From positions 1 through 64,000 of the IMG/VR virus record IMGVR_UViG_3300047160_020099: a DNA stretch of 64,000 nucleotides, one strand, 5' to 3'. The notes beneath the pieces were generated by a model. It was given only the letters and a program-made list of their open reading frames with translations. It was not told the origin of the DNA and searched no databases. Positions 12,405 to 32,677 of the stretch are shown one piece after another. The stretch is from a virus. Position 1 is the stretch's first letter, and every line of letters starts with the position of its first letter. Position numbers and translations under genes: made by a program.

Positions 12405-12416
12405 AAACAGCTCCGC

Positions 12417-12450
12417 TAAATTTCCAACTTCAACGTGTCACTATTACATG
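12417..12450 (+). promoter_or_regulatory. Phage promoter-like motif P1
   Basis: TAAA-N14-GTGTCACTATTACATG. Confidence 0.7.
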
Positions 12451-12509
12451 GAAGTCTCCTAGAGAGTCTGGGAGGCAACAGTTTCGAAACCCTCTTACAG
12501 GAGGTCGCC

Positions 12510-13472
12510 ATGAAATACTTGGCGGGTAGGAATCGCGATCGGCTGTTGGCCCAGTTGCGGGCCGAGATCGCGTTGCCGGCCAACACCGGCAAGGGGTTCG
12601 GCACGGTCGAGACCGTGTGGGGCCGCCAGACCATCGGCGTGGGTGACGGGGCCCTGCTGGCCCTGAACTACGTCGGCCCCCCGGGGACCTCGGCCGCGAT
12701 GGCGCCCAACTACGGGCATCCCGAGCGGCTGGCCATCATCGGCCTCGGGCCGCACTTCGACATGAACGTCCTGGTCGGCGCCCTCGCCCTCAACGGGCGC
12801 AAGCCGCCCGCCCACCAGTCGTTGTACGAACTGTTGGCATTTGTGGACCAGGAGGGTCTGCACAAGATCGGCACGGCCACGCGACCGAGATGGGAGACCG
12901 TGGACCTGGACATCTACAACGCCTTTCGGGTGTGGTCCCGGGCCAACCGCTTTCCGTCGCTGCCCAGCGACGGCACGCCGGTGGACGCGACGAGCCACAT
13001 GGAGGCGGCAACGACCGCGTTCAACACGGCGACGGCCCGCGACGCTGTCATGATCGAGTCCGGTCGGCGGCTCGTGGCCGACGAGGCCCGGCTGAATGGA
13101 GAATCGTACGTCCGGACCTACGGACGAACGATTCTCCGGCGGTCGCCGGAGTTCGTCAACGGTCTCTACGCGGAACCCGGGGGCACGCCCCGGGATGCCT
13201 GCGTGGCCATCAACCCCGACAAGGGGACGGTCATGATCACCGTGCCGTTCCCGATCGCCCGCCGGTACCCCAACATCAGCTGCGCGAGCCTCGCAACGCA
13301 GTTGTGGGGCTCGCGGGCGACGGGCCGCGAGGACGTGGCCAACTCGCCGCAGGGACAGCTCCTGAATGAGTCCCACGCGGAACAGGCCGCCGTGGAGCTG
13401 GACCGTCAGCTCCAGATGGCCAGCGGGGTCACGCCCACCTCCGCCGGGGCGCCCACCACGGCCGGGGCCTGA
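12510..13472 (+). CDS. Hypothetical protein, possibly a degenerate DHH/DHHA1-like fold
   Basis: ATG after AGGAGG; GC visibly higher than its neighbours; weak resemblance to phage DHH-like proteins (recalled, not searched). Confidence 0.6.
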   Translation: MKYLAGRNRDRLLAQLRAEIALPANTGKGFGTVETVWGRQTIGVGDGALLALNYVGPPGTSAAMAPNYGHPERLAIIGLGPHFDMNVLVGALALNGRKPPAHQSLYELLAFVDQEGLHKIGTATRPRWETVDLDIYNAFRVWSRANRFPSLPSDGTPVDATSHMEAATTAFNTATARDAVMIESGRRLVADEARLNGESYVRTYGRTILRRSPEFVNGLYAEPGGTPRDACVAINPDKGTVMITVPFPIARRYPNISCASLATQLWGSRATGREDVANSPQGQLLNESHAEQAAVELDRQLQMASGVTPTSAGAPTTAGA

Positions 13473-13550
13473 TCGTCGAATTCGCCGGCCACTTGCCCAC
13501 CACCGCGGCCGGCGCCCGTACGTGCCCCACTTGGAGTGGGGCAAAGAGGG

Positions 13551-13591
13551 GGACCCGGTATGCTGCCCCAGCAGCGTACCGGGTCTTTTTT
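13551..13591 (+). terminator. Intrinsic terminator
   Basis: GACCCGGTATGCTGC/GCAGCGTACCGGGTC stem followed by a T run. Confidence 0.85.
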
Positions 13592-13596
13592 AGCTA

Positions 13597-13629
13597 TAAA
13601 ACCACTCATTGTTGTGGCATTATTATGTG
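13597..13629 (+). promoter_or_regulatory. Phage promoter-like motif P2
   Basis: TAAA-N13-GTGGCATTATTATGTG. Confidence 0.7.
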
Positions 13630-13688
13630 ACATGGGTAACCCTGCCAAAGCGGCGGGAACCCGTCCCTCTGATAGAAGGAGTCAAGAC

Positions 13689-14132
13689 GTGGTGGAAATC
13701 CGTGACCCTCTCCAGCGCCATTTCGTGGCACTGGTGGAGGAAGGTCGTCTGCTGACCGAACGGGTCAGTAAGGCGACTGAGGTAGCCGAGCGGATTGCTC
13801 GGCTGGAGCAGGAGCTTGCCGAGGCGAAGAAGGAACTCGGCGAGTTGGTCCAGCCGGCAGTGACGCCGGCCAAGATTTCGTCGGCCCTGGCGGACGCCTG
13901 TCAGGGGAAGACGGGTCCGCAGCCAGGAAACCTGCGGTGGGCGATCTTGCGTGAGCTGAGGGAAAGGGGACCGCTCACTTCCAGGCAAGTCTTTCACAAC
14001 TTGCGTAGGGAGTTCAAGGCCAAGTTGCGTGGCGAGAAACCCCAGCAGCGGATCTACAGTGAGCTCTACCAGCTGAAAAACGTCGGACAGATCGTCCGAG
14101 AGGACGACGGGAGCTACGCTCTCGTCGAGTGA
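13689..14132 (+). CDS. Coiled-coil plus winged-helix putative DNA-binding protein
   Basis: GTG after AAGGAG; heptad region then LRWAILRELRERGPLTSRQVFHNL...IYSELYQLKNVGQIVREDDGSYAL, a wHTH pattern. Confidence 0.65.
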   Translation: MVEIRDPLQRHFVALVEEGRLLTERVSKATEVAERIARLEQELAEAKKELGELVQPAVTPAKISSALADACQGKTGPQPGNLRWAILRELRERGPLTSRQVFHNLRREFKAKLRGEKPQQRIYSELYQLKNVGQIVREDDGSYALVE

Positions 14133-14140
14133 TATCGACA

Positions 14141-14179
14141 GGCGGGTCCGGACTCTGTTCCGGACCCGCCCGTCTCTTT
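14141..14179 (+). terminator. Hairpin terminator
   Basis: 12-bp perfect stem GGCGGGTCCGGA/TCCGGACCCGCC followed by a pyrimidine tail. Confidence 0.75.
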
Positions 14180-14185
14180 AACTAC

Positions 14186-14219
14186 TAAATCCCACCCCTT
14201 TATGTGTCACTATGTAGTG
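14186..14219 (+). promoter_or_regulatory. Phage promoter-like motif P3 (no downstream ORF)
   Basis: TAAA-N14-GTGTCACTATGTAGTG. Confidence 0.65.
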
Positions 14220-14272
14220 ACAATCGCATAGGCCTTCCCCTTTGGGGAAGTCCTTCAGCTACCTATCAGTAT

Positions 14273-14306
14273 TAAATTCAGCTGAAATCGGTGGCATTCT
14301 TTAATG
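14273..14306 (+). promoter_or_regulatory. Phage promoter-like motif P4
   Basis: TAAA-N14-GTGGCATTCTTTAATG, immediately followed by the GAGGAG RBS. Confidence 0.7.
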
Positions 14307-14319
14307 AGGAGAATTACGG

Positions 14320-14871
14320 ATGCATGTTCTCGTGACTGGACCTTCGGGAGCCGGAAAATCTACCTTCGCTCAGACCCTGGCGAAGGTACGAGGTTTGCCC
14401 GTCTGCAACCTCGATCGGGATACTGTCTGGCGGCAGTACGTGGACGAGGACAAGGACGCGTTCCGCCGGCTGATCATGCGGCAGGACCCGGCCTCCCGTG
14501 AATACGCCAGGCTCAAAGAGGCGCAGGAGGAGGTGGTCAACCGGGCGCTCAAGCAGGGACCCTCGATCATCGAGGGCTGTCAGCTTCTGGCGTTCCCGAT
14601 GCTGACTCGTCTCTATGAGACATTCCTGCTGACGCCGCCAATGCCTGTAGTTCTTGCCCAGAGGATGGAGCGCAAGAAGCGGCACAGAGTCGAGCGTGGT
14701 GAACCTCCCATGGCCAGGGAGGAGGAAGAGCGCGCTGCGGAGTTTTCGGCAGCGCTATACCGCTCCATGGAAAAGGAGGTGGCGAGCTTCAAGCAGCGAC
14801 CTGGAGTCACGGTGATCTACTCGCCGCGATATGTCGCTGCAAGAATGCGGGCTCGTCCTGAAGGTGCGTAA
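14320..14871 (+). CDS. P-loop nucleotide/nucleoside kinase-like protein
   Basis: N-terminal VLVTGPSGAGKST Walker A; IIEG strand; LAQRMER lid. Confidence 0.8.
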   Translation: MHVLVTGPSGAGKSTFAQTLAKVRGLPVCNLDRDTVWRQYVDEDKDAFRRLIMRQDPASREYARLKEAQEEVVNRALKQGPSIIEGCQLLAFPMLTRLYETFLLTPPMPVVLAQRMERKKRHRVERGEPPMAREEEERAAEFSAALYRSMEKEVASFKQRPGVTVIYSPRYVAARMRARPEGA

Positions 14872-14893
14872 GGTCTTACTGCGTAGGTAGGAC

Positions 14894-14907
14894 AGTATTG
14901 CAATACT
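14894..14907. promoter_or_regulatory. Palindrome copy 2
   Basis: AGTATTGCAATACT, intergenic. Confidence 0.8.
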
Positions 14908-14935
14908 CGTGGAATTTGTGGAAAGGATGGCGCGT

Positions 14936-15175
14936 ATGGCCGACGAAGACGACGGTATGTACAAGTTCAAGGTTTACACGGAAGAAACGGTTGCCAAGGT
15001 AGGCATTGAGAGTCCCCCCATGGGGCCCGGCTTCACGCCGGAACAGCTGCAGGGGGCAACCTTGATGGAAGTCTGGGGCACTCTTGCAAGCGCGAAAGGC
15101 CCCGACCGGACGGAGTTCCGGTTGTTCGACAAGGAAGGACGGCTCAAGGCCGTCCGAGAGGTGAAAGGATATTGA
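14936..15175 (+). CDS. Hypothetical protein
   Basis: ATG after AAAGGA; 79 aa. Confidence 0.65.
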   Translation: MADEDDGMYKFKVYTEETVAKVGIESPPMGPGFTPEQLQGATLMEVWGTLASAKGPDRTEFRLFDKEGRLKAVREVKGY

Positions 15176-15176
15176 C

Positions 15177-15332
15177 GTGACGCAACGTGAGAAGAGTCAG
15201 AGAATCGTAACCTACACGACGTGCGGCATGCTGTCGCTCGTCGTGTCGGTGTTTTTCCCGCCTGCATTCTTCATGACCATGGCCTGCTTCGTTGGGCTGA
15301 TGGCCATGGTGGGGACAACGCCCACCAAGTAA
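15177..15332 (+). CDS. Small two-helix membrane protein (51 aa; not in the ORF track)
   Basis: GTG after AAAGGA; MTQREKSQRIVTYTTCGMLSLVVSVFFPPAFFMTMACFVGLMAMVGTTPTK; ends just before a hairpin. Confidence 0.6.
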   Translation: MTQREKSQRIVTYTTCGMLSLVVSVFFPPAFFMTMACFVGLMAMVGTTPTK

Positions 15333-15339
15333 ACCAACA

Positions 15340-15365
15340 AGGCCGGCTCCTTCGGGGGCCGGCCT
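15340..15365 (+). terminator. UUCG hairpin, probable terminator
   Basis: AGGCCGGCTCC-TTCG-GGGGCCGGCCT. Confidence 0.65.
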
Positions 15366-15475
15366 CGCCCTTTCATGGCTTTCTTTTAGTTGTGGGATTA
15401 TAGTGAAAGCAGCCCGACAGGCACCTGGACGTGCCCATCGGGCCTGACCGATACCGATCTTGTAGGGAGACCGAT

Positions 15476-16030
15476 ATGGCTATGACTGAAGCTAGCCGAA
15501 AGGCTCGTCGCGATCAATGGCGTCGCGATGGTCGTTGCACGATGTGTGGCCGTGACCCGATTCCAGGTCGCAGGCTGTGTCCACGCTGTACTAAGTACCA
15601 CCGCAAGCTCAGAGCTAAACGAGCCGCTGCTGGCATTTGTAAACGCTGTGGCGGGATAGTTGCCGAGGGTCATATTCATTGCCAGGATTGTCTCAGGAAG
15701 GTACGGGAAGACAATCAAGCAGTCAGAAGGGAAGTCATTGCGGCATACGGTGGCACGTGTGCCTGTTGTGGCGAGCCGGAGGAAGATTTTCTCCAAATCG
15801 ATCACATTCATGATGACGGTGCTGAACATCGGCGGCAGATAGGTGGAGGGGGAGCCATCTATCGATGGTTGAAACGTCACGGCTTCCCCAAAGACAGGTT
15901 CCAGCTGCTTTGTGCCAACTGTAACTACGCCAAGGAATTTTACGGCAGCTGTCCACACCAAAGGACTGGCACGGAGATAAGAGAACATGCAAGGCTCAAC
16001 AGATGTGCTGGAAAGAAACCGGCTGCGTGA
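15476..16030 (+). CDS. HNH homing endonuclease with N-terminal Cys repeats
   Basis: YGGTCACCGE...LQIDHIH...FQLLCANCN; two CxxC..CxxC units. Confidence 0.85.
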   Translation: MAMTEASRKARRDQWRRDGRCTMCGRDPIPGRRLCPRCTKYHRKLRAKRAAAGICKRCGGIVAEGHIHCQDCLRKVREDNQAVRREVIAAYGGTCACCGEPEEDFLQIDHIHDDGAEHRRQIGGGGAIYRWLKRHGFPKDRFQLLCANCNYAKEFYGSCPHQRTGTEIREHARLNRCAGKKPAA

Positions 16031-18800
16031 GCGATTGCGATCACTCTCTTTCGGGCACGGTCTCGTAAAGGTAGCTGATTTGGGTGGATCGCCCGATCAG
16101 ACTTTTGAGGCCGCGTTTTCGAATTTATCGCATGCGTATCTGAAAGATAAAGCGCCTAAACTACTCGACTATGAGTTGGGCTTCCAGCTCATTGACAAGA
16201 ACGAGGAGAACACCAAAGCTGTTGGTGTCTTCGGCTTCAAGCTTGGCTCTCAATACCTCTACGCGCCTGTCTTCTTCCTCAATGGTGAGCTCAAAGGTCA
16301 CGAACTGCTCTATATCAAGAACCAGGATCTGTTCGTGCCTCTGAAGGACAACTGGGTGAACTATCTGCTCGGTCGTCGTCCGTCTGTTCTCGGCGAAGGC
16401 ATGAATCGCAATTTGTCGCTCGTCGGCGTGATGCCACCCAACCTCTATCAGCTCTCTCGCTCCCCGAACAAGTTTGCTTCTGTCACAAAGTATTACTGTC
16501 CGAAGTGTGGCTGTGATGAACACGGCAAGAAGTGCGAGCATTGTGGTTGTGCTACTGTCGAACGCACCAAGATGGCTTCCTGGGTTCACGAGGTCATGCC
16601 AGACCTGGCATACTTCGCTACACAGGACGTGGCCACCGAGCCAAAGTATGCCGGCCTGAAGACCTTCCCCGAGTTCTTGAAGGAAGCCGGGGAAACGGCG
16701 TTCCGTTTTCTGGTCGAGAAGGTCGGCAGCGAATACCCGACCGTCTTGCGTGCGGTCGATACATTATACGGCCCGGACATGCTGACAAAGCTGGCCCAGC
16801 AACTTGCTGCACAGAGACAGGCTGCTGCTCCGACCAACTCCATCCTCAAGCAAGGCACACTGGCCATGGCCGGCGAGACACCTCCCGGCTGGAACGGCGG
16901 TTTCCAGAATCCCTCGGTCGAGAATGGCGGCCGGCTAAGCACCGGGCGTGAAGCCTGGGATAGCTCTCATGTTGGCCGTCGTCGCAGTGAAGCTCAGGTC
17001 GGCAGCCTGGATGACATGGGTGTCAAATCCGGCCACTATCCAGGCTGTGGCGCCAAGGCCGGCCACTACCCCGGTTGCGGTGCCAGAGGACCTGCCAAGC
17101 CCAAGGCTCCCACCAAGGTAACCCGTCCACGACCTGTCAAGCACGCCTCCATCATGAAGGTGGCCAAGCCAGTCGGCTCCGAGCACGTTTCGGAGATGAA
17201 GCCACGCAAGGTGAAGGTAGTTACACACGACGAAATCAACGACAAGAACCGTGCAGACCTTCTGCACAACCTGGACAAGGACGAACGCGAGCGTCTGCTC
17301 AAAGAGCGGATCGTGGTTAAGGACGATCGCGATGACAAGGAGGTCACGCTCGCTTATAACGTCCAGACGGAGATCAAGCTCCAGACTCCCGACCGAACAA
17401 ACATCTACCGCCTGCTGGTCAAGCCCGACACATTCAAGGACTGCCTCGTACTGTTCGGGCCGTATGACGAGACAGGCCGCAATACATTCTGCACCGTCGT
17501 TGACCTGGACACCAAGCGCTGGGTGAACATCCACCCGTCACGTATCTGGGCCGAGAGTGAGTATGACGACGAGGCCTGGCGGGAATGGTTCGACGGGCTG
17601 AAGAAGCTCGACTCGCCGCCCGACAAGGGCGACCTGTACCTTGTTCTCACTCCGTGGGGTCAGGGTACTTGCCCCTGTGAGCTGGTTGAGTCTTACGGGA
17701 GTGACGCGGCGGACACGGACCTGTACGACGTACGCTTCCGCAGCTATGCCGACATTAGCCAGCCGTTCTACCAGAACGACTACCCGCGTATGGTTCGTCC
17801 TTTCCGCGAAGGCGTCTGGAACGGCTCTCGTATTCGGCTGACGCATCAGCCTGGCAAGGCATTCAAGGTCACTGAAGGTGACGTCTGTGTGCCGGACGGC
17901 GCCCGCTACCTTGAGCTGAAGAAGGCCAAGCCCTCGAAGCCTGACTTCGACGCAGACTCGGACGACCATTCCCCGGAACCATCCGGCACGGAGCCCGAAC
18001 CCCTCCAGCTTGGCAACCTTGTTGACGTGCAGCTGGCTCTTGCCAATCAAACCAAGGCGCTACACCTTTATGCAGACGGCACCGACGTGACCTTCGATCG
18101 TGCCAAGAAGCTCAACAAGGTGGCTGCACTCAAGGAGCTGGTACTCACCTACAACCTTCGAGAAAAGGTTGCCCGACAGATTCTCGAAGAGGCAGAACGA
18201 CAAGGTCAGCTCTTCCGGCGTTCATACACCTGTCTGCTCAAGAAGGCCGCGCCCGGCAGTCCGATGGGCGACATGGTCTCTGGTGCGCCCAACTCGCCAC
18301 CCTTCCCCGAGCCAAACATCGGCTATGACCCGATGACGGGTTCGAACGTTCCCACCATGGGTGAGTCTGAGTTCAACGTCAAGGTGCCCGACATGTCGGC
18401 ATCCAAGACTGACCGCTCAATTTACTACCCGCTCAGTCCAGATGCTGCCTCCATGCAGGTGGCCCAGCGTGCCGCCCAGACCGGCCAGCGGGAAGTCTTC
18501 GATACGGCAATGCTCGGTTCCATGCTCAAGTCAGTCCGCCAGGACTCAATGGTCGAGAAGTATCTCGGCGACCTGACCAAGGGCATGGACCGACTGGGGC
18601 GTATCTTGTTCCTCTTCTACTGGCATGGCGAAGAGTTCGAGGAGCGCTACGGCAAGCAAGACATGCCTGAGCTCGAAGACGGCATCCGCAACGCCTTCGA
18701 GGGTGTCGGTGACATTCTCTGGAAGCTGAAGCAGAAGACGGTTGACCCGTATCCTGACGAGGGTACGGATGCCGACCTGTCTGAGATCGCCAACCAGTAA
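15987..18800 (+). CDS. Large putative virion (head-associated) protein
   Basis: 937 aa; many K-x-A motifs; Zn ribbon CPKC..CEHC; GHYPGCGA tandem repeat at 17031-17084; start uncertain. Confidence 0.65.
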   Translation: MQGSTDVLERNRLRERLRSLSFGHGLVKVADLGGSPDQTFEAAFSNLSHAYLKDKAPKLLDYELGFQLIDKNEENTKAVGVFGFKLGSQYLYAPVFFLNGELKGHELLYIKNQDLFVPLKDNWVNYLLGRRPSVLGEGMNRNLSLVGVMPPNLYQLSRSPNKFASVTKYYCPKCGCDEHGKKCEHCGCATVERTKMASWVHEVMPDLAYFATQDVATEPKYAGLKTFPEFLKEAGETAFRFLVEKVGSEYPTVLRAVDTLYGPDMLTKLAQQLAAQRQAAAPTNSILKQGTLAMAGETPPGWNGGFQNPSVENGGRLSTGREAWDSSHVGRRRSEAQVGSLDDMGVKSGHYPGCGAKAGHYPGCGARGPAKPKAPTKVTRPRPVKHASIMKVAKPVGSEHVSEMKPRKVKVVTHDEINDKNRADLLHNLDKDERERLLKERIVVKDDRDDKEVTLAYNVQTEIKLQTPDRTNIYRLLVKPDTFKDCLVLFGPYDETGRNTFCTVVDLDTKRWVNIHPSRIWAESEYDDEAWREWFDGLKKLDSPPDKGDLYLVLTPWGQGTCPCELVESYGSDAADTDLYDVRFRSYADISQPFYQNDYPRMVRPFREGVWNGSRIRLTHQPGKAFKVTEGDVCVPDGARYLELKKAKPSKPDFDADSDDHSPEPSGTEPEPLQLGNLVDVQLALANQTKALHLYADGTDVTFDRAKKLNKVAALKELVLTYNLREKVARQILEEAERQGQLFRRSYTCLLKKAAPGSPMGDMVSGAPNSPPFPEPNIGYDPMTGSNVPTMGESEFNVKVPDMSASKTDRSIYYPLSPDAASMQVAQRAAQTGQREVFDTAMLGSMLKSVRQDSMVEKYLGDLTKGMDRLGRILFLFYWHGEEFEERYGKQDMPELEDGIRNAFEGVGDILWKLKQKTVDPYPDEGTDADLSEIANQ

Positions 18801-18810
18801 GGGGTGAGCG

Positions 18811-19980: not shown

Positions 19981-20004
19981 GTATTGCACTACTCGGGAAA
20001 CTCC

Positions 20005-23392: not shown

Positions 23393-23395
23393 GCC

Positions 23396-23578
23396 GTGGA
23401 CAAAGCCGGTAGTACGAAGATTCATGACATTCGGGAACTGGTCAGGGTCGCCAACGCAAGGAAGGAAACGCTGGTCGTCAACATGGACAGAGGCGATCAG
23501 AAGGCTGTCGTTGTGGTAGCCACCGGCAAACGAGCAACGTTGTTGCGGCGTCTTGCCGAGGAGTTTTCGGAGGTTTGA
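23396..23578 (+). CDS. Small hypothetical protein
   Basis: 60 aa; GAGGT RBS; fills the gap exactly. Confidence 0.5.
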   Translation: MDKAGSTKIHDIRELVRVANARKETLVVNMDRGDQKAVVVVATGKRATLLRRLAEEFSEV

Positions 23579-23581
23579 CCA

Positions 23582-25036: not shown

Positions 25037-25082
25037 ACCGTCGGCAGCACGACGCTAACGGTCGAGCCAAAGGAGTGGCACG

Positions 25083-26411: not shown

Positions 26412-26414
26412 GGC

Positions 26415-26428
26415 AGTATTCCAATACT
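26415..26428. promoter_or_regulatory. Palindrome copy 4
   Basis: C-AGTATTCCAATACT-G, intergenic. Confidence 0.8.
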
Positions 26429-26447
26429 GTGATCATGGAGGATTGAC

Positions 26448-26870
26448 ATGCCAGCTCCAACGTTCGAAGAGAAGGTGATTGACGCCTTCCAGCTCGCGGG
26501 TGCTGCTCTCGTCAAGTACGAGAAGATGGCAGAGGAAAAGAAGGCCGAGGACGAAAAGGTCGCTGCGGCCATTCCGACTGTCGTCGAAGCCTTGCTCCGC
26601 TTCAACCGCATCGACGCGACCGACAAGGAGGCTTGTGCCCGTGCATTGGCCAATCCTGTCGAAGTCCTGAACCTGATGAAGAAGCTTGCCGCCCATCGCA
26701 ATGCGACTGAGATCGCGTCGCTGGGTGAGCAGGTGGACGGTCAGGGCAACGCTGCAAACGGCCAGTCCAAGGAAGCTTCCGTCGAGAAGCGAGGCGGCTA
26801 CGTTGGTCGTGTGACCAGCGAGAAGCCTGAGTCCTGGCGGCGTTTCGAGGCCGGCCTCGGAATGCACTGA
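26448..26870 (+). CDS. Small scaffold/head assembly-like protein
   Basis: GGAGG RBS; EKMA, EKVA, KKLA and KEAS motifs. Confidence 0.65.
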   Translation: MPAPTFEEKVIDAFQLAGAALVKYEKMAEEKKAEDEKVAAAIPTVVEALLRFNRIDATDKEACARALANPVEVLNLMKKLAAHRNATEIASLGEQVDGQGNAANGQSKEASVEKRGGYVGRVTSEKPESWRRFEAGLGMH

Positions 26871-26934
26871 TCGAAATTGACAGGTCGGAGCCGTTTTGGT
26901 TGAATGTGGCAAGCCCGACTCATCGGAGAAGGTA

Positions 26935-27393
26935 ATGTCACAGGCTTCGGAACGAACGGCAACCCGACGGGAAAAGTTAGCGGCAGCCGGCCTTTGCACA
27001 GACAGCTGTGGCCGCATGGCTATCCCAGGTGAGGTTAGGTGTTCGATCTGCAAGGACAAGAACATTGCGAGAAATTTGGCACTTCGTGCTGCTTTGAAAG
27101 CTGATGTCATTCAGCATTACGGTGGCCCGACCTGTGCCTGTTGTCTCGAAACTTTCGATCTGTGTTTCTTGTCGATCGATCACGTTCACGGCGGCGGCAG
27201 AGAGCACCGGAAGGAAATTGGGGGTGGTGGTCACAAGACATACAAATGGCTGAAAGACCACAATTATCCCGACGGTTTCCAGGTTCTTTGCCACAACTGT
27301 AACCAAGCCAAGGGCATGAGAGGCGAGTGCCCGCATAAGCAACAGCAGACGGAACTGCTGAAGAAACTGGCAACGATTCCGCTCGAATATTGA
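26935..27393 (+). CDS. HNH homing endonuclease (paralog of 15476)
   Basis: YGGPTCACCLE...LSIDHVH...FQVLCHNCN. Confidence 0.85.
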   Translation: MSQASERTATRREKLAAAGLCTDSCGRMAIPGEVRCSICKDKNIARNLALRAALKADVIQHYGGPTCACCLETFDLCFLSIDHVHGGGREHRKEIGGGGHKTYKWLKDHNYPDGFQVLCHNCNQAKGMRGECPHKQQQTELLKKLATIPLEY

Positions 27394-27408
27394 GACAAGG
27401 AGGATCTC

Positions 27409-28002
27409 ATGCCTTCCACTCCTGGACAGATGTTTACGAATCTCTTGAACCCCGCCAAGGGCTGGCCGAATCCCGTTGCGCTCGACTACCGCGCGAAGGT
27501 GGATGCCACGGTTCTCTACAACATGGTGGCTGGCCAAGCCGCCCACCTGAACGCCACAACCGGCAACACCCTTCTGCCTGGTGTCGTGAACAACCAGATG
27601 GGCTTGTTCCTCTTCCAGGGTGTGAACGAGCTCGACACGAACAACGCTGTCGGCACCGCTGGTGGCATCACGCAGTGGATCCCCATCAACCCGGTCGGCT
27701 GGATCATGTGTCTGGTCGCGAAGGGTCCGTACGAGCTCGAAACGACCGAGTTCGACTCGACACAGACCTATACAGCGAATCAGCCGCTGCGTGCTCCGAC
27801 GGGTGTGGCTGCCAACTCCTATCCGGGTTCCGGCCAGCTGACCAACCAGAGCGTGACCATGGCCTCGCAGACCAACACTCCGCAGTCGAGCTCGACTGCT
27901 GTCTGTGGCCTGGTCTCCCGCGGCCAGTTCCGCAACTCCTACGGCATGCCTGCCCTGGCGTTCTGGCCGATCTACAACCCAGGACGTTCCGGGGAGACGT
28001 GA
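27409..28002 (+). CDS. Putative capsid decoration/cement protein
   Basis: AAGGAGG RBS; beta-rich, 197 aa; immediately upstream of the MCP. Confidence 0.6.
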   Translation: MPSTPGQMFTNLLNPAKGWPNPVALDYRAKVDATVLYNMVAGQAAHLNATTGNTLLPGVVNNQMGLFLFQGVNELDTNNAVGTAGGITQWIPINPVGWIMCLVAKGPYELETTEFDSTQTYTANQPLRAPTGVAANSYPGSGQLTNQSVTMASQTNTPQSSSTAVCGLVSRGQFRNSYGMPALAFWPIYNPGRSGET

Positions 28003-28083
28003 GAAACTACCGGCCGCGGCGCCGGGAGTTCCGACGTCGCTTCTTCGAAGGAATCGATTTCATTGCACACGGAGGTGCCTTCA

Positions 28084-29010
28084 ATGGCGACTCAGTCGGA
28101 AACCCGGGTCATCAACGAGACGCTCTTTGAGCAGCTCGGGACGCCCGGTCTGGAAAAGCGAGCCATCGACGCGGTGAATGATTTCACTCGCGTCAAGATG
28201 CGTGAAGACGGTTTCTTCCGTCGCATCATCCCGCCGCTTCAGATCAGCAACGACGATCTGGACCGCCAGGTCGATACGGACAAGCCAGTCAAGGTCGTGG
28301 ACAAGGAGCCCGACTCCCCGGCCGCGATCAGCTTGCCGTTCGCGTCCTTGCCGATCAACATCTACATCAAGGGCCCACGCTACCGCGTCCTGTTCGACCG
28401 CGTCGTTACGCCGCGGTTCACCAAGGACGTCGATGAGCTGCGTACCTGGGTGATGGATATCCGGCAGGTGCTGTCCGACAACGCCATCAAGGACATGCTG
28501 GCCGAGGAGGATTCCAAGTTCCTCACCGCGGTCAACGTCGGCCTTGTCGGCCAGGACACGGTCGTGCCGGCTTCTGGCGTGCCGCAGTGGCAGACCATCA
28601 GCGGTGGCATCACTCGTGATACCTTGCAGGACGCGTTCAAGATCATGCCGCGTACCCCCAGCCATCTGGAGGTTCATACGGTCCTGATCAACAACGTAAC
28701 CATTCGCGAGGTCATGAAGTGGGGCCGCGACGAGATGGGCGGCGACTTCAGCCAGGACCTGGTGAAGAACGGGTGGAGCGAGCAGGAATTCATGAACGCT
28801 CGGTGGATCATCACCATCAAGCGTGACCTGGTTCCTGACGACTCCGTCTACATGTTCAGCGACCCGAAGTTCATCGGGAAGAGCTACCTTCTTGAAGATA
28901 CGACCATGTATATCAAGAGGGAGGCCTTCATGCTTGAGTTCTTCGCCTACGAGACGATGGGCGCGGCGATCGGTAACACGAGCGGGCTCGCTCGTGCCGA
29001 CTTCGTCTGA
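28084..29010 (+). CDS. Major capsid protein (HK97-fold candidate)
   Basis: GGAGG RBS; strongly biased codons; C-terminal EFFAYETMGAAIGNTSGLARADF pattern; follows protease and scaffold; followed by a hairpin. Confidence 0.8.
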   Translation: MATQSETRVINETLFEQLGTPGLEKRAIDAVNDFTRVKMREDGFFRRIIPPLQISNDDLDRQVDTDKPVKVVDKEPDSPAAISLPFASLPINIYIKGPRYRVLFDRVVTPRFTKDVDELRTWVMDIRQVLSDNAIKDMLAEEDSKFLTAVNVGLVGQDTVVPASGVPQWQTISGGITRDTLQDAFKIMPRTPSHLEVHTVLINNVTIREVMKWGRDEMGGDFSQDLVKNGWSEQEFMNARWIITIKRDLVPDDSVYMFSDPKFIGKSYLLEDTTMYIKREAFMLEFFAYETMGAAIGNTSGLARADFV

Positions 29011-29038
29011 TACGCGAGGATTCGACAACTTCCTCTTC

Positions 29039-29070
29039 AACAGGCGGCCTTCGGGCCGCCTGTTCTATTT
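29039..29070 (+). terminator. Terminator after the MCP
   Basis: AACAGGCGGCC-TTCG-GGCCGCCTGTT followed by a T-rich tail. Confidence 0.85.
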
Positions 29071-29113
29071 CTATCTGGCTGCTCTGGTTCGTCTCTCGTG
29101 TTTCTGTTAATAT

Positions 29114-29155
29114 CATCGTTGTTCCTATCTCAGGCCTTGAGGAGTAACAACGATG
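29114..29155 (+). promoter_or_regulatory. Hairpin sequestering the RBS and start codon of an HNH gene
   Basis: CATCGTTGTT pairs with AACAACGATG, which includes the ATG; GAGGAG lies inside the hairpin. Confidence 0.6.
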
Positions 29156-30028
29156 GACGTCGTATCATTCGATCATTCGCAAACCGCACTGATCGCAGCG
29201 AAGCCGACCAAGGAATCCTCCAAACGGAAGAATCGGGAGGCTGGTCTTTGTGCCAATAACAAGGACCACGCACGTCCCACCGGTACACACAGCGAGTGCG
29301 ACGCTTGTTTGAAGCAACGCCGTGACATACTGGCTGAGAAAAAGAGACTTGGTATTTGCAGCCGCTGTACCGAGCCTGTTGAACCCGGCAAGCAGGCGTG
29401 CAAAAAGCACCTGAAGATACGCAGAGACAAGAAACAGACCTACAAGCAACGGGGACTTTGTACTGACTGCGGGCTTAGGCAAGCACGACCTAACAAGGTG
29501 AAGTGCAAAATATGCAGTGACATCAATAAGAAGCTTCTGCGGGAAGGTCGTGACAAGCTCCGGCTAGAAACGTTTAAGGCTTACGGTGGCGCTTTCTGTT
29601 GCTGCTGTTACGACACGGAACTAACGGTTCTCACCCTCGATCACATCTTCAATAACGGGAATGCCCATCGACGGGAAATTGACAAGAAGGGCCGTGGCGG
29701 TGGCGCCAAGTTCTACAGCTACCTCCAGAAGCGCGGTTATCCCGACCGCGACAAGTACCAGGTTCTCTGCTTTTCCTGCAACGTAAGCAAATACCGTAAT
29801 CACGGTTGTTGCCACCACGCTGCCTGGCCACCCGAAAAGCTTGAGGCTCTCCGGCGACTCCACCGGTGCATGGAATCGCCGGTGACCATAATCGAGCCGC
29901 GGCAGTATTGGAATACTGGCACGGCGTTTGCAGCTGCTTGCGACTCCATGGTGCTGCCGGACTATGCGACCGACAAGGAGCTGGTCCCTGCGATCTACGA
30001 ACTAGCTGTTTCTTTCGACTTGTTCTGA
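29153..30028 (+). CDS. HNH homing endonuclease with three N-terminal Cys repeats
   Basis: YGGAFCCCC...LTLDHIF...YQVLCFSCN. Confidence 0.85.
   Translation: MDVVSFDHSQTALIAAKPTKESSKRKNREAGLCANNKDHARPTGTHSECDACLKQRRDILAEKKRLGICSRCTEPVEPGKQACKKHLKIRRDKKQTYKQRGLCTDCGLRQARPNKVKCKICSDINKKLLREGRDKLRLETFKAYGGAFCCCCYDTELTVLTLDHIFNNGNAHRREIDKKGRGGGAKFYSYLQKRGYPDRDKYQVLCFSCNVSKYRNHGCCHHAAWPPEKLEALRRLHRCMESPVTIIEPRQYWNTGTAFAAACDSMVLPDYATDKELVPAIYELAVSFDLF
29904..29917. promoter_or_regulatory. Palindrome copy 5 (intragenic)
   Basis: C-AGTATTGGAATACT-G. Confidence 0.7.
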
Positions 30029-30050
30029 TAACCCTTAACAGTGTCCTCTC

Positions 30051-30082
30051 AAAGGCCTGCCAACAACTGGCAGGCCTTTTTT
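30051..30082 (+). terminator. Intrinsic terminator
   Basis: AAAGGCCTGCCA/TGGCAGGCCTTT followed by a T run. Confidence 0.85.
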
Positions 30083-30086
30083 CGTC

Positions 30087-30120
30087 TAAATTTCTACCAT
30101 TTATGTGGCATAAATAGATG
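30087..30120 (+). promoter_or_regulatory. Phage promoter-like motif P5
   Basis: TAAA-N14-GTGGCATAAATAGATG. Confidence 0.7.
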
Positions 30121-30152
30121 AACCAACCCTACCCTCTTTCCAGGAGTCTCAC

Positions 30153-30572
30153 ATGAACGTTGGGCTGCCCAACAGTCGGAACGCCGAAAACATCGCGCTG
30201 GATTTCGTGCGATTCCTGGCCAGGGCGGAATACCCGCCGGCCATACCCAACCCAGCGATCCATGACAGTATTCAGCCGGGGCCGATCTACTGCGGCTCCG
30301 GCCTCGACATCGTCTGGTACCTCTTCTGCTTGGGGGACGAAGAGCCCTTCTGGATTCGTGACGACGTGCGTGTCGTCAGGGTAGGCAAGGATGCCTGCCT
30401 CAAGAACCTCCAGACGATTCCGCCCCCGCGACTGCACGCGGTGATCGCCAATGGCGGTACCACCGCGCTGACGTGGGCGCTGGCACGGTTGGCGTTCGCC
30501 ACCGAGCCCCAGCCGCACGTCTACAACGTCCAGCAGGACGGGGTCACGGAACTGTCACCGTACCCGTCCTAA
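30153..30572 (+). CDS. Hypothetical protein
   Basis: AGGAG RBS; 139 aa; single-gene unit between P5 and a hairpin. Confidence 0.7.
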   Translation: MNVGLPNSRNAENIALDFVRFLARAEYPPAIPNPAIHDSIQPGPIYCGSGLDIVWYLFCLGDEEPFWIRDDVRVVRVGKDACLKNLQTIPPPRLHAVIANGGTTALTWALARLAFATEPQPHVYNVQQDGVTELSPYPS

Positions 30573-30586
30573 CCCACTAGTTCGAC

Positions 30587-30616
30587 AGGCCCTCCCCACC
30601 TCTTCGGGGAGGGCCT
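30587..30616 (+). terminator. Hairpin, probable terminator
   Basis: AGGCCCTCCCC/GGGGAGGGCCT, 11-bp stem. Confidence 0.65.
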
Positions 30617-30650
30617 TAAATTTACTCATCATTTGCGGCATTATTCAATG
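30617..30650 (+). promoter_or_regulatory. Phage promoter-like motif P6
   Basis: TAAA-N14-GCGGCATTATTCAATG. Confidence 0.7.
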
Positions 30651-30703
30651 GACTTGCTTACTCGCGTAAGCAGGCCCGCGGTTCTTTTAGGTAGGAGGTT
30701 TGG

Positions 30704-31336
30704 ATGTACGCGAATACTGTGGCAGCGCGAAAGGTTGCAGGACTTTGTATCGAGACCGCTTGCGGAAGGCCGTGCGACGGCACAAAACTGAGGTGCAAGG
30801 AACATCTGGAAGCTGCGCGTAAACATGACAGGGCGCGCTACGCGGCAAGAAAGGCCGCTGGAAAATGCGTGCAGTGCGGCCGTCGTCCTGCAACGTCGGG
30901 TTATGTCCGGTGTGCAGTATGCCGTGTTAGTCACAACGCGATTGATGAAGAACACCGCCGTTACTGCAAAGAACAGCGCTTGTGTTCGCGCTGCCCGTGG
31001 GATCATCCCGAGCCAATCTGCGACGAAAGCGTGGTGTTCTGCGCGAAACACTTGCTCGAAGAAAAGGAGACAGGACAGCTGCGAGCCCGGCCCAGCAAAC
31101 AACCACGCCACGAAACACGCAGCACGCACGCTCGCCCGCCCGAGGAGTACGTCGCCCCCGCGCGGATTGAGGTCGGTTCCACTTGTGAAGAGGAGCCATA
31201 CCCACAGTATCCAGACGGTTACCTCAACAACCGCGGAAAGAGCATGACGCTGGGGCTGCGTCGCTGGGATGGTCGGCTGGGAACCAGAGGAGATGATGTC
31301 AACAGTGCCTCTTTTCCGATTGGAGACCATGAATGA
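30704..31336 (+). CDS. Cys/His repeat (zinc-finger-like) protein, paralog A
   Basis: Three GLC..C..CxxH/C units, no HNH core; AGGAGG RBS. Confidence 0.7.
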   Translation: MYANTVAARKVAGLCIETACGRPCDGTKLRCKEHLEAARKHDRARYAARKAAGKCVQCGRRPATSGYVRCAVCRVSHNAIDEEHRRYCKEQRLCSRCPWDHPEPICDESVVFCAKHLLEEKETGQLRARPSKQPRHETRSTHARPPEEYVAPARIEVGSTCEEEPYPQYPDGYLNNRGKSMTLGLRRWDGRLGTRGDDVNSASFPIGDHE

Positions 31337-31875
31337 GACAAAACTGTCGGACGCGTTACGAAGCTGGGCTGTGCATAATGGCCACCTGCGGAAAGCCGCG
31401 TGACGGTACCAGTCCGATGTGCAAAGAACACAACGAACAGAAGAAGTGCAAGGCCAGGGAACGATACGCCAGGCGAAAGGCTGCTGGTCTCTGTGCAACA
31501 TGCAAGAAGCGGGCAACGCCGGGTTTCAGCAGATGTCGTGAGTGCCTTGATCGCAACATCGAAGAAGCGTTGAAGCACTACCACGACTGCATAGCTCGTG
31601 GCGTGTGCCCGCTGTGTCCGAGAGCTAACCCGAAACCACACTGTGCCGGTAGTAAGGTATACTGCGAGGCTCACTGGCAGAAAGTCAGGAAAGAGGACAC
31701 ACGTCGCCGTCGGCAAACGCGGCCCAGGATACGACATACCAGCCCTGCCGTGCTGGCTGAAGCCAGCACGCCTCACGAAGAGGGAATGTACCCCGAATAC
31801 CCAACCGGCTACCTCAACCAGCCAGGTTTCGCTCTGCCCGGTCAGTGGGACGAACGACTGTTCCAAAGGAGGTGA
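31333..31875 (+). CDS. Cys/His repeat (zinc-finger-like) protein, paralog B
   Basis: Same three units; shares ARxRYAxRKAAGxC and YPxYPxGYLN with paralog A. Confidence 0.7.
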   Translation: MRQNCRTRYEAGLCIMATCGKPRDGTSPMCKEHNEQKKCKARERYARRKAAGLCATCKKRATPGFSRCRECLDRNIEEALKHYHDCIARGVCPLCPRANPKPHCAGSKVYCEAHWQKVRKEDTRRRRQTRPRIRHTSPAVLAEASTPHEEGMYPEYPTGYLNQPGFALPGQWDERLFQRR

Positions 31876-31910
31876 TGCCGGCTGACACTACCAACAATCC
31901 CGTTGCTACG

Positions 31911-31950
31911 AGGCCCTGCCGGGCACAAACCGGCAGGGCCTTTTCTCTTT
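31911..31950 (+). terminator. Intrinsic terminator
   Basis: AGGCCCTGCCGG/CCGGCAGGGCCT followed by TTTCTCTTT. Confidence 0.8.
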
Positions 31951-31965
31951 CAAAAGGAGATCCCG

Positions 31966-32226
31966 ATGCGTATTCTGTTTCTCGCTATCATCGTCCTGCT
32001 GCTCTCCGGCTGTGCCATGTCGCCTGAAGAGCGGCAAAAGTTCATGCGGGAAAACCCACCACAACTCGTTGGCGAGCAAGACGGCGTCAAGCTGTGGCAC
32101 GCCCTGGTGCCACTCAAGTACGGCGGCACCCAGGACGTTTTCTTCACCACTCCGGGCGGTGCCACCAACTGGCGGGAAAAGCAAGGAAAGGTGTGGGTAG
32201 AGAAGGGCGTTCCCGGTACTCCGTAA
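31966..32226 (+). CDS. Putative lipoprotein
   Basis: MRILFLAIIVLLLSGC lipobox; AAGGAG RBS. Confidence 0.75.
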   Translation: MRILFLAIIVLLLSGCAMSPEERQKFMRENPPQLVGEQDGVKLWHALVPLKYGGTQDVFFTTPGGATNWREKQGKVWVEKGVPGTP

Positions 32227-32231
32227 CCGGC

Positions 32232-32265
32232 TAAATTCCAATCACTTTGGTGGCATTCTTCAGTG
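32232..32265 (+). promoter_or_regulatory. Phage promoter-like motif P7
   Basis: TAAA-N14-GTGGCATTCTTCAGTG. Confidence 0.7.
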
Positions 32266-32296
32266 GAGGATCCTTTCCCCACACAAGGAGGTTCGT

Positions 32297-32584
32297 ATGG
32301 AGGCGAAGTTGATTGTGCCGTATCTCGACCGGGACGGTCGGGTACAGCACCTCATGAAGCGAGTGCCGCTTGCCCTGCGGCCGTGCTGTGGTTCAGAAGT
32401 AGCGCTGGAGCCTGAACAGCGAGACCGTTCGCCGATAGCCTGCGTCAAGGCTATCAAGTATGACTGCTGTGGCTGTCTCTTGATCTACTTCAACGTGGTA
32501 AAGCCTGGCTCCGGCTGGTTCGGGATCTCCCACGAGGCCTTCCAGAAGGCGATGGCTTCGTGGTCCCGGGTGGTCCTCGTGTGA
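32297..32584 (+). CDS. Hypothetical Cys-containing protein
   Basis: AAGGAGGT RBS; 95 aa. Confidence 0.7.
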   Translation: MEAKLIVPYLDRDGRVQHLMKRVPLALRPCCGSEVALEPEQRDRSPIACVKAIKYDCCGCLLIYFNVVKPGSGWFGISHEAFQKAMASWSRVVLV

Positions 32585-32598
32585 GAAGTGAAGTGATC

Positions 32599-32635
32599 GG
32601 TTCTCCTCGTCAAAGCGACGAGGAGAGCCTTTTTT
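32599..32635 (+). terminator. Intrinsic terminator
   Basis: GGTTCTCCTCGTC/GACGAGGAGAGCC followed by T6. Confidence 0.85.
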
Positions 32636-32643
32636 CTAGCTGT

Positions 32644-32677
32644 TAAAAAACGACAAGAGCGGTGGCATTATTAGATG
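32644..32677 (+). promoter_or_regulatory. Phage promoter-like motif P8
   Basis: TAAA-N14-GTGGCATTATTAGATG. Confidence 0.7.

Follow-up and report, generated by a model that had tools for sequence, protein, structure and literature searches.

The 64,000-nt window analysed here (positions 1 to 64,000 of IMG/VR record IMGVR_UViG_3300047160_020099) encodes a beta-beta' RNA polymerase and a sigma factor, and a bipartite motif recurs in front of several of its genes. This raises the question of what the motif does and which protein reads it. On balance, it is probable that the motif forms a sigma-70-family promoter class for accessory genes, read most likely by the phage sigma together with the phage polymerase.

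Copies and layout of the motif

All eight copies reported in the first-pass annotation were present on the plus strand. The strict pattern TAAA-N13/14-GTGKCAY-N6-RTG gave seven exact matches in the window, all on that strand: P1 (12417-12450), P2 (13597-13629, the one copy with N13), P3 (14186-14219), P4 (14273-14306), P5 (30087-30120), P7 (32232-32265) and P8 (32644-32677). No match was found in 100 dinucleotide-preserving shuffles. The eighth copy, P6 (30617-30650), reads GCGGCAT (the GCGG variant) and aligned in the same register. As annotated, the copies are intergenic (coding fraction 0 for 8 of 8). Seven of them lie 13-67 nt upstream of a Shine-Dalgarno (SD) sequence and start codon; the exception, P3, precedes P4 by 87 bp, and the two have one gene in common. 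A purine directly follows RTG in every copy. The source is a 162-kb soil phage, and the scan of its whole contig (161,936 bp) that the annotation had proposed added one further full copy, TAAA-N14-GCGTCATCAT at 149182, and one near-copy, TGAAAAC...GCGTCATTAT at 142695-142722. Both lie outside the two accessory islands to which the motif had been thought confined.

P1, with a TAAAT -35 box, a GTGTCAC-TAT -10 region and ATG at the predicted start, begins 12 nt past the stop codon of the gene for the C-terminal part of beta' (beta'C) and precedes a 320-aa gene (12510-13472), a position that is homologous in relatives. P7 also directly follows a stop codon, at 5 nt, and precedes a 95-aa gene (32297-32584). 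The other six copies follow terminator-like hairpins, in agreement with the earlier count. The hairpins before P2 (about 13546-13591), P3 (14141-14170), P5 (30051-30079), P6 (30587-30616) and P8 (32599-32629) are strong (z -5.0 to -6.7), that before P4 is weaker (z -2.6), and clear U-tracts follow those of P2, P5 and P8. Downstream of these copies are a 147-aa gene for P2 (13689-14132), a P-loop kinase-like gene for the tandem P3 and P4 (14320-14871; AAA_18, E 1.9e-11), a 139-aa gene for P5 (30153-30572), two Cys-rich paralogues for P6 (30704-31336 and 31333-31875) and a 136-aa gene for P8 (32745-33155). The predicted P3 transcript starts with a hairpin (14232-14254), the P6 leader contains a terminator-like hairpin, and the predicted P4 leader is about 13 nt long and begins at the SD; an Rfam search of the window returned no known RNA family. 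Homologues in the related genomes G001, G002 or G012 were found for none of the eight motif-driven genes but for 75 of the 143 others (Fisher p 0.006), which argues that the motif-driven genes are accessory.

The consensus is (C)TAAAT, 13 nt, G-Y-G-K-C-A-Y, an A/T run and TG at the predicted start. The two boxes keep a fixed spacing, TAAA-N14 (N13 in P2)-GYGKCAY, in nine sites of this phage and 38 of its relatives, which agrees with the roughly 17 bp between the hexamers of sigma-70-family promoters. Co-orientation with the genes and a short upstream intergenic position, as expected of such promoters, were found here and in G012. This architecture is compatible with any sigma-70-family factor, including one of the host.

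Conservation in related phages and likeness to sigma-28 promoters

Nine close relatives carry the motif (L005-L008, L010, L089-L091 and L093; contigs of GC 47-68%). In six it directly follows the beta'C stop codon (L005, L007, L010, L089, L091 and L093), in L008 it lies within 500 nt downstream of beta'C, and in L006, L089 and L090 it occupies other intergenic gaps. The beta'C gene is likewise directly upstream of the motif in G002. The form TAAAT-N13-GCGKCAT occurs in many phages that are less closely related but have a homologous sigma (GC 43-68%), and the GCGGCAT variant of P6 is the commonest form among relatives. A scan of 29 IMG/VR records encoding a sigma homologue gave 43 matches, versus 17 for a reversed-pattern control, and a tighter pattern gave 24 versus 4; some of the 29 records had no match with the patterns used. 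Nine copies of TAAAT-N13-GCGTCAT-ATATAG-TG occur in G012 (GC 47%; sigma 46% identical). They all lie on the plus strand and precede genes of 82-178 aa, eight of the copies being fully intergenic, and words of the motif are the most intergenic-enriched 7-mers of that genome. At least seven copies, with ...CAA, were found in G001. TAAA itself was fixed by the search pattern in the relatives' sites, but the preceding base was left free, and it was C in 34 of those 38 sites and in five of the nine sites of this phage, extending the box to CTAAA.

These relatives were found with alignment-based scans, whereas a search of IMG/VR for related loci with the single beta'C protein returned nothing, and an over-specific exact pattern gave one chance match only, in an unrelated AT-rich contig. 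Homologues are numerous in metagenomes (more than 1,700 of beta'C and 358 of sigma). Literature searches returned no paper on promoters of this phage lineage, and a search of sequencing runs found no RNA run with the phage sequence, whose words occurred, in small shares, in soil DNA runs alone. The proposal that the motif is a promoter class is well supported: the copies are placed and oriented as promoters would be, their geometry is of sigma type, and the motif is kept throughout a lineage that has the sigma and RNA polymerase genes in common. As far as sequence can tell, it is a real class common to that lineage and not private to this phage.

The annotation had noted that the motif keeps the -35 TAAA of sigma-28 promoters with a different downstream element. 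Sigma-28 promoters have TCTAAAG at -36 to -30 and GCCGATAA at -15 to -8, with A-11 flipped (PMC12784957). Those of the group 3 factors FliA, SigD and WhiG read (T)CTAAA(G)-N14/15-GCCGATAA, and the phage motif has the identical -35 core, (C)TAAA, of that consensus (PMC12784957). The distance from TAAA to A-11 is 19 nt in both, since GYGKC after N14 in the phage takes the place of GCCG after N15. When TAAA is aligned with its sigma-28 position, -11 is occupied by the A of CAT, and T and A/T come next, so that both share the melted segment A-T-(A/T)-(A/T); both also have a duplex block rich in G/C immediately before the -10. The block itself differs: the phage has G-Y-G-K-C (5 nt from -16) where sigma-28 promoters have G-C-C-G, a mismatch at all four sigma-28 positions. 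The sigma-28 -10 element is absent, the phage reading GYGKCAT(W)3 with all of positions -15 to -12 changed. Unlike sigma-28 promoters, the motif serves phage accessory genes, and its likely reader is a phage sigma that falls below the FliA/WhiG family cut-off. The sigma-28 analogy thus far holds better than the annotation could see.

Candidate readers of the motif

Three plus-strand genes of the window bear on the reader. One encodes RNA polymerase beta fused to the N-terminal part of beta' (3591-9485), with an intein/LAGLIDADG insert and predicted sigma-docking helices at residues 1664-1733. The second encodes beta'C (10497-12404), the conserved anchor directly upstream of P1. The third encodes a sigma-70-family factor (63295-64000 in the window, 63295-64026 for the full gene in the contig), the candidate reader, which is the sole sigma found in the contig and is packed inside an operon of large genes. 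The sigma and polymerase genes lie with virion genes, and the motif copies precede early-type cassettes.

The sigma had been described as FliA-like, but it cannot be filed as FliA because it scored 30.6 bits against a cut-off of 189.6 (TIGR02479), with RpoD-type and SigB/F/G models scoring alike. It has 243 aa in three helical domains, and its predicted structure (pLDDT 83) shows the sigma2-3-4 fold. Among PDB entries this structure came closest to a model of SigD from B. subtilis (E 4e-7); WhiG, SigA, SigB and SigS ranked lower, the last three within tenfold. Region 4.2 (...SPGA(I/V)SQR(A/K)AKIQ) is kept across the lineage. Covariation of its SQRA and SQRK variants with the promoter was looked for and gave no signal, both variants going with TAAA. 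Homologues of the sigma in a phage database occurred only in phages that also hold an RNA polymerase homologue. Docking of the sigma on residues 1480-1964 of the phage beta' scored 0.76 (best of three controls 0.00). Of solved complexes, 58 of 80 attain that mark, against 2 of 110 mismatched pairs, though a pass may reflect likeness only, because sigma2-clamp-helix complexes are solved. At least 51% of contacts agreed between docking runs, with a partner pLDDT of at least 69 and an interface between beta' 1664-1733 and sigma 21-61. No alpha-subunit homologue was found.

The motif is probably the phage sigma's own promoter code, because it is kept by many related phages with their own bacterial-type RNA polymerase and sigma, and we infer that this sigma reads it with the phage polymerase. 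On this reading each copy begins with (C)TAAAT as its -35 box. A spacer of 13 nt separates this box from G-Y-G-K-C, the duplex block that serves as 'extended -10', after which an A/T-rich stretch opens with an A predicted to flip at -11; the TG 9-10 nt further on is the expected transcription start. The reader would be the diverged, group-3-like sigma bound to the phage beta-beta' polymerase, with region 4 reading CTAAA as sigma-28 does and diverged regions 2.4/3.0 reading GYGKC instead of GCCG. At least two other promoter-like classes occur in these genomes, one of TGCTATAAT type and one reading TTGCC-N17-TGyTAC(G/C)AT, and these could equally be the targets of the phage sigma instead.

Other readers were considered. 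Host RNA polymerase might use the motif with a host sigma, either a sigma-28-type flagellar factor able to accept the changed -10 block or the housekeeping sigma of an unusual host, at strong early promoters as in T4 or T5. The CTAAA box and its spacing match sigma-28 promoters, and a separate promoter and terminator for each accessory cassette is a usual trait of early regions transcribed by the host, the T4-like PeSLs among them (PMC2839356). Yet GYGKC at -16 to -12 matches GCCG at no position, not even at the GC pair that serves sigma-28 as its extended -10, and the difference is kept in relatives from GC 43% to 68%. Moreover, no copy fits TTGACA/TATAAT (a generic scan called none of them), and the genomes with the motif also have canonical TGnTATAAT-type promoters and hence already possess a host-type class; a host sigma seems an unlikely reader. 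In T4 middle promoters, MotA/AsiA replace the -35 contact of host sigma-70. A comparable arrangement, in which host sigma-70 reads Y-G-n-CAT(W)3 as an extended -10 and a phage DNA-binding protein on CTAAAT replaces the -35 contact, would explain G at the predicted -14 with T at -15 in seven of the nine copies, which resembles the TGn extended -10, as well as A at -11 and the A/T run after it. It is nevertheless quite improbable, as an invariant C stands at -12, for which sigma-70 favours T, -15 is C in most relatives, and every motif-bearing genome encodes a sigma with an intact region-4 helix-turn-helix.

The annotation had also offered an operator or a cassette-recombination site, based on an invariant CAY-N6-RTG dyad. 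The inverted repeat it had seen in P3, TGTCAC-N6-GTGACA, is real and perfect but occurs in that copy only. The Y and R positions do not covary, and the arms are not complementary in P1 (C with A) or in P2 and P7 (T with G). RTG becomes AAG, ACG, TTG or CTG in the ninth copy and relatives, being CTG or absent in the ninth copy and near-copy and often absent in relatives. Both conserved parts, CTAAAT and GYGKCA, lack symmetry and always point in the direction of the genes, and this genome already has a separate true palindrome, AGTATTNNAATACT. Copies do lie at borders between conserved genes and variable cassettes, and T4-like PeSL promoter-terminator units mediate cassette shuffling (PMC2839356), so the motif could have a secondary role of this kind; as its chief function, operator binding of a dimeric regulator or cassette recombination deserves very little credence, because the dyad is not conserved. 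A sigma-54 promoter (TGGCAC-N5-TTGC, GG and GC 10 nt apart) was rejected: six copies read TGGCAT, but the downstream TG is one nucleotide out of register and lacks the C, and relatives read GCGTCAT where TGGCAC would be needed.

The lineage, which has both polymerase and sigma, now has a candidate promoter code kept from GC 43% to 68%. The assignment, if true, would supply a natural sigma-promoter pair orthogonal to bacterial ones, a simple marker of early or accessory genes in a large uncultured phage group, a test case for a sigma that changes extended -10 reading while retaining -35 reading, and a way to test if injection of phage DNA can bring in a sigma-dependent holoenzyme.

Comparison with known systems

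Salmonella phage Arash is a distant cultured relative whose RNA polymerase and sigma are homologues, 26-27% identical to those of the soil phage, and its sigma gene likewise lies among structural genes. Mass spectrometry of Arash virions found beta (with the top spectral count), beta' and sigma (PMC10585845). The soil-phage motif is absent from the Arash genome, which carries GGTATAAG-N5-GTAAAC instead. Two Arash copies read GGTATAAGAATACT, like the palindrome AGTATTNNAATACT of the soil phage, but given the Arash family consensus the likeness was attributed to chance. Because the sigma and polymerase genes of the soil phage are among virion genes, its promoters stand before early-type cassettes and Arash packages all three proteins, the holoenzyme may enter with the phage DNA and start the accessory genes first; from this arrangement we infer the early role and timing of the motif promoters.

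Phage sigma factors that work with the host core are familiar from SPO1 (gp28 and gp33/34), T4 (gp55) and phiEco32 (gp36). As proposed here, a phage sigma-family protein provides these phages with a private promoter code distinct from that of the host; unlike them, the soil phage also encodes beta and beta'. Reviews of 2021 and 2026 (PMC7824862, PMC13282480) describe polymerase-bearing phages without sigma homologues and sigma-bearing jumbo phages without polymerase; in phages, the multisubunit enzymes described until now (phiKZ, AR9) work without a sigma-70-family factor, and large phages with a sigma are taken to rely on the core of their host. It is possible, though we put it forward only tentatively, that this widespread, almost wholly uncultured lineage of 150-230-kb phages has a complete private transcription system (beta-beta', a sigma-70-family factor and the sigma-28-derived code CTAAAT-N13-GYGKCAT), whose virion-packaged holoenzyme starts accessory (early) genes without host sigma and would be the first sigma-dependent virion RNA polymerase.

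The layout is that of the promoter-early stem-loop (PeSL) cassettes of T4-type phages, in which a stem-loop terminator and a strong promoter flank single non-essential genes in hyperplastic regions (PMC2839356): hairpins precede six of the eight copies and the genes are accessory. PeSL promoters are sigma-70-like and host-read, whereas the motif is probably read by the phage sigma. Contigs from four soil runs shared with positions 12400-32399 only short identical pieces of 150-700 nt, with no joint at the motif, which say nothing on cassette borders. Early promoters of virion RNA polymerases (the hairpin of N4 vRNAP and the AT-rich promoters of phiKZ/AR9 vRNAP) stand ahead of small early-type genes, as here. 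Their enzymes are delivered in the virion, which the Arash virion proteins make possible for the soil phage, packaging having been seen in Arash only. The N4 and phiKZ/AR9 enzymes act without a sigma-70-family factor, and their promoters lack the bipartite -35/-10 architecture of the soil-phage motif.

Motif copies and the genes behind them

The first-pass annotation proposed a two-box motif, TAAA-N14-GTGKCAY-N6-RTG, as a probable promoter class with eight intergenic copies on the + strand (P1 to P8, at 12417, 13597, 14186, 14273, 30087, 30617, 32232 and 32644). The copies were borne out: the window contained seven exact matches to the pattern, all on the + strand, compared with none in 100 shuffles, and the eighth copy, P6 (GCGGCAT), fell in the same alignment register as the others. 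Alignment of the eight gave TAAAT-N13-G(T/C)G(G/T)CA(C/T)-TATT-N2-(A/G)TG, with a purine next in every copy, and all eight were intergenic. A strong Shine-Dalgarno sequence and start codon were found 13-67 nt 3' of each copy other than P3, which lies 87 bp 5' of P4 and serves the same gene; the first genes start at 12510, 13689, 14320, 30153, 30704, 32297 and 32745. Six copies were preceded by a hairpin, as had been noted, which was strong at P2, P3, P5, P6 and P8 (z -5.0 to -6.7) and weaker at P4, with U-tracts at P2, P5 and P8. A generic TTGACA/TATAAT scan called none of the eight copies. The claim that all copies lie within two accessory islands did not survive a scan of the full contig (161,936 bp, linear, GC 58%, 78% complete by CheckV, with nearly all genes on the + strand), of which the window is the first 64 kb. 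Two further sites were located there: a ninth copy, gCTAAAA-N..-GCGTCATCAT...CTG, at 149182, and a near-copy, TGAAAAC...GCGTCATTAT, at 142695.

None of the eight first genes behind the motif had a homolog (E <1e-5) in G001, G002 or G012, three related records that encode a sigma homolog, compared with 75 of the 143 other genes of at least 80 aa (Fisher p 0.006). Only one first gene, for a P-loop kinase-like protein, had a Pfam match. The copies in G012 and G001 were likewise in regions without a counterpart in the source contig, and most of those in G012 were in a 60-kb accessory block upstream of the RNA polymerase (RNAP) genes. The source contig ends exactly at the counterpart of this block and therefore may miss further copies.

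Two adjacent genes (30704-31336 and 31333-31875), overlapping by 4 nt and sharing promoter P6, encode Cys-rich paralogs with repeated CxxC pairs, similar C-terminal halves and no Pfam match. A gene at 31966-32226, behind a terminator and lacking its own promoter motif, encodes an 86-aa protein whose signal peptide is of the lipoprotein type (…LLLSGC). Many of the transcripts predicted from the motif start with a small stem-loop or carry a terminator-like leader hairpin (window 14220-14262, after P3, and 30651-30690, after P6; contig 142735-142775 and 149215-149260; also the related loci L128, L130, L135, L143 and L151), and these could act as 5' stabilizers or attenuators. A conserved AGCTAT(C/T)AG tail (TTTTTAGCTAT) comes after the U-tracts of this lineage's terminators; it was seen at 13587-13596 and 32630-32643 in the window, at 156800 in the contig, at L007 16250, L091 9160 and L093 15620, and in several G001 gaps.

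Conservation across related phages

Metagenomes contained more than 1,700 homologs of beta'C, the separately encoded C-terminal part of RNAP beta', and 358 of the sigma protein, many of them from contigs 150-230 kb long. Among the closest relatives, whose beta'C is 63-76% identical and whose GC is 47-68%, the motif was found directly 3' of the beta'C stop in six loci (L005, L007, L010, L089, L091 and L093) and no more than 500 nt downstream of it in L008; the TAA stop was often the start of the TAAA box, and the genes that follow varied. The motif was also present in other gaps in L006, L089 and L090. When 29 IMG/VR records with a sigma homolog (29-57% identity) were each scanned whole, TAAA-N13/14-GYGKCAY had 43 matches against 17 for a reversed-pattern control, and a tighter pattern had 24 against 4, with a strong strand bias. 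In G012 (194 kb, 93% complete, GC 47%, sigma 46% identical), TAAAT-N13-GCGTCAT-ATATAG-TG occurs nine times, always on the + strand and in eight cases wholly between genes, ahead of genes of 82-178 aa; its top intergenic-enriched 7-mers were words from the motif. G001 (complete, sigma 54% identical) had at least seven copies, ending ...CAA, and G002 had one, immediately 3' of beta'C. C preceded TAAA in 34 of 38 curated sites from relatives, a position left free in every search pattern. With its intergenic placement before Shine-Dalgarno sequences and start codons, and its retention across the lineage, the motif is, with high confidence, a genuine promoter class of sigma-28-like type that serves accessory genes and is conserved in the lineage.

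In some relatives the motif after beta'C led into a non-coding stretch of 350-450 nt that appears to be structured (L008 12343-12872, L007 11927-12275, L093 11927-12305), and in L008 then by a tRNA-Asn, so the class may also drive RNA genes.

Other repeated signals were seen in these genomes. A 14-bp palindrome, AGTATTNNAATACT, had 39 copies with at most two mismatches (19 perfect) throughout the contig, at window positions 91, 14894, 24332, 26415, 29904, 32756, 33531, 52864, 53969, 61202 and onward, divided about equally between gene interiors and gene junctions, with no conserved -35 box upstream. Because the palindrome at G001 gene junctions, ACTTAAAAATTAAGT, is a different one, each phage may have a site for its own dimeric regulator. 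A second promoter-like class, with an extended -10 of the TGCTATAAT type that looks host-type, was found 5' of homologs of a 937-aa virion gene (L091 9118-9247, L092 4039-4283, L010 13835-13956, L005 12411-12597, L093 16065-16186) and in the window at 15381-15396, where it reads TTGTGGGATTATAGTG. More distant relatives (L014, L016, L028, L034, L035, L038, L040, L057, L063, L067 and L087) had a conserved (C)GTTGCC-N~17-TG(C/T)TAC(G/C)ATAAT in the place of P1, within the first 60 nt after the beta'C stop.

Promoter type and candidate reader

In the cryo-EM structure of P. aeruginosa sigma-28, TCTAAAG lies at -36 to -30 and GCCGATAA at -15 to -8; A-11 flips out, and sigma-28 reads a GC pair as an extended -10 element (PMC12784957). 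When the TAAA of the motif was set at -34 to -31, the A of CAT fell exactly at -11, followed by T and A/T, and the G-Y-G-K-C block spanned -16 to -12. The motif thus resembles sigma-28 promoters in its -35 box (CTAAA), its spacing and its melted segment, but the duplex block just 5' of -11 differed at every position. The TG, earlier written as RTG, is 9-10 nt 3' of the -11 A, the expected place of the start site, and was kept at either of two neighboring registers in about 32 of the 38 curated sites (manual count). Read in this register, the CAY-N6-RTG dyad, which had been considered invariant and a possible operator, corresponds to positions -12 to -10 plus the start region. An operator is unlikely because the Y and R show no covariation (P1 combines C with A; P2 and P7 combine T with G) and the downstream arm is frequently absent in relatives.

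The contig encodes a bacterial-type RNAP beta fused to an N-terminal portion of beta' (3591-9485; Rpb2_6 E 6e-49, Rpb1_2 E 5e-21; LAGLIDADG insert), beta'C (10497-12404) and one sigma-70-family protein (63295-64026; Sigma70_r3 above its cut-off), while searches of the contig for a second sigma and for an alpha subunit found neither. In many relatives beta'C or the beta-beta' fusion is split at varying sites by inteins or homing-endonuclease domains (Hom_end_hint, LAGLIDADG, Hint; for example L006, L091 and L092, and proteins P0127, P0146, P0148 and P0179), and in two (P0136, P0137) a NUDIX domain is fused to beta'C. In reviews from 2021 and 2026, multisubunit RNAPs of phages are said to lack a sigma, and jumbo phages with a sigma to lack an RNAP (PMC7824862, PMC13282480), and a literature search found no paper on promoters in the present lineage.

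The sigma had been called FliA-like. Its structure model (pLDDT 83) has the sigma2-3-4 fold and is closest in the PDB to a B. subtilis SigD model, but SigA, SigB, SigS and WhiG were only slightly behind and its score was far under the FliA/WhiG family cut-off; it is described here as group-3-like, not FliA. The region 4.2 helix, SPGA(I/V)SQR(A/K)AKIQ, was kept lineage-wide. Docked on phage beta' 1480-1964, the sigma scored 0.76 and the best of three controls 0.00, a pass that may show likeness only, because complexes of this kind are solved; of the solved complexes, 58 of 80 reached this mark, as did 2 of 110 mismatched pairs. Docking runs shared at least 51% of contacts, with partner pLDDT of at least 69, and the docked surfaces, beta' 1664-1733 and sigma 21-61, form the classical clamp-helix/sigma2 contact.

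The motif differs from the housekeeping consensus and also from the -10 consensus of sigma-28, and it co-occurred with the sigma and RNAP genes over GC 43-68%, a range that implies very different hosts. A host-type promoter class is already present, because canonical TGnTATAAT-type promoters occur beside the motif in the same genomes, for example before homologs of the 937-aa virion gene. The favored, moderately confident reading is that the motif is recognized by the sigma that the phage itself encodes, probably together with the phage polymerase.

Timing of use and comparison with known systems

The sigma gene is packed within an operon of large genes, and the RNAP genes adjoin virion genes, including those for the 937-aa protein and a 484-aa protein that match structural proteins gp218 and gp222 of Salmonella phage Arash. 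Arash is the nearest cultured relative, though distant (beta'C 26% and sigma 27% identical); its sigma gene is among structural genes, and mass spectrometry of its virion detected beta (with the highest spectral count), beta' and sigma (PMC10585845). Vibrio phages D69, D148 and D181 are also among the nearest isolates. The gene placements suggest, more weakly, that the sigma is made with late proteins, while the cassettes behind the candidate promoters are of early type. A holoenzyme that is packaged and injected would reconcile the two, and by analogy with Arash such early use of the motif is conceivable, though somewhat doubtful. The motif was absent from Arash, where GGTATAAG-N5-GTAAAC was found in its place, in at least 14 co-oriented copies (L095, 18.5-50 kb, minus strand; and L088) about 25-30 nt 5' of small early-type genes. 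Arash-like phages read GGT-ATAAG where the motif has GYGKC, and an ATAAGA core was seen in Arash. Arash also has a few canonical TTGACA-N17 promoters.

The unit of terminator hairpin, promoter and one accessory gene seen here is similar to the promoter-early stem-loop (PeSL) cassettes of T4-type phages, where recombination between cassettes also shuffles genes (PMC2839356). By this analogy, a secondary role of the motif units in gene shuffling is possible.
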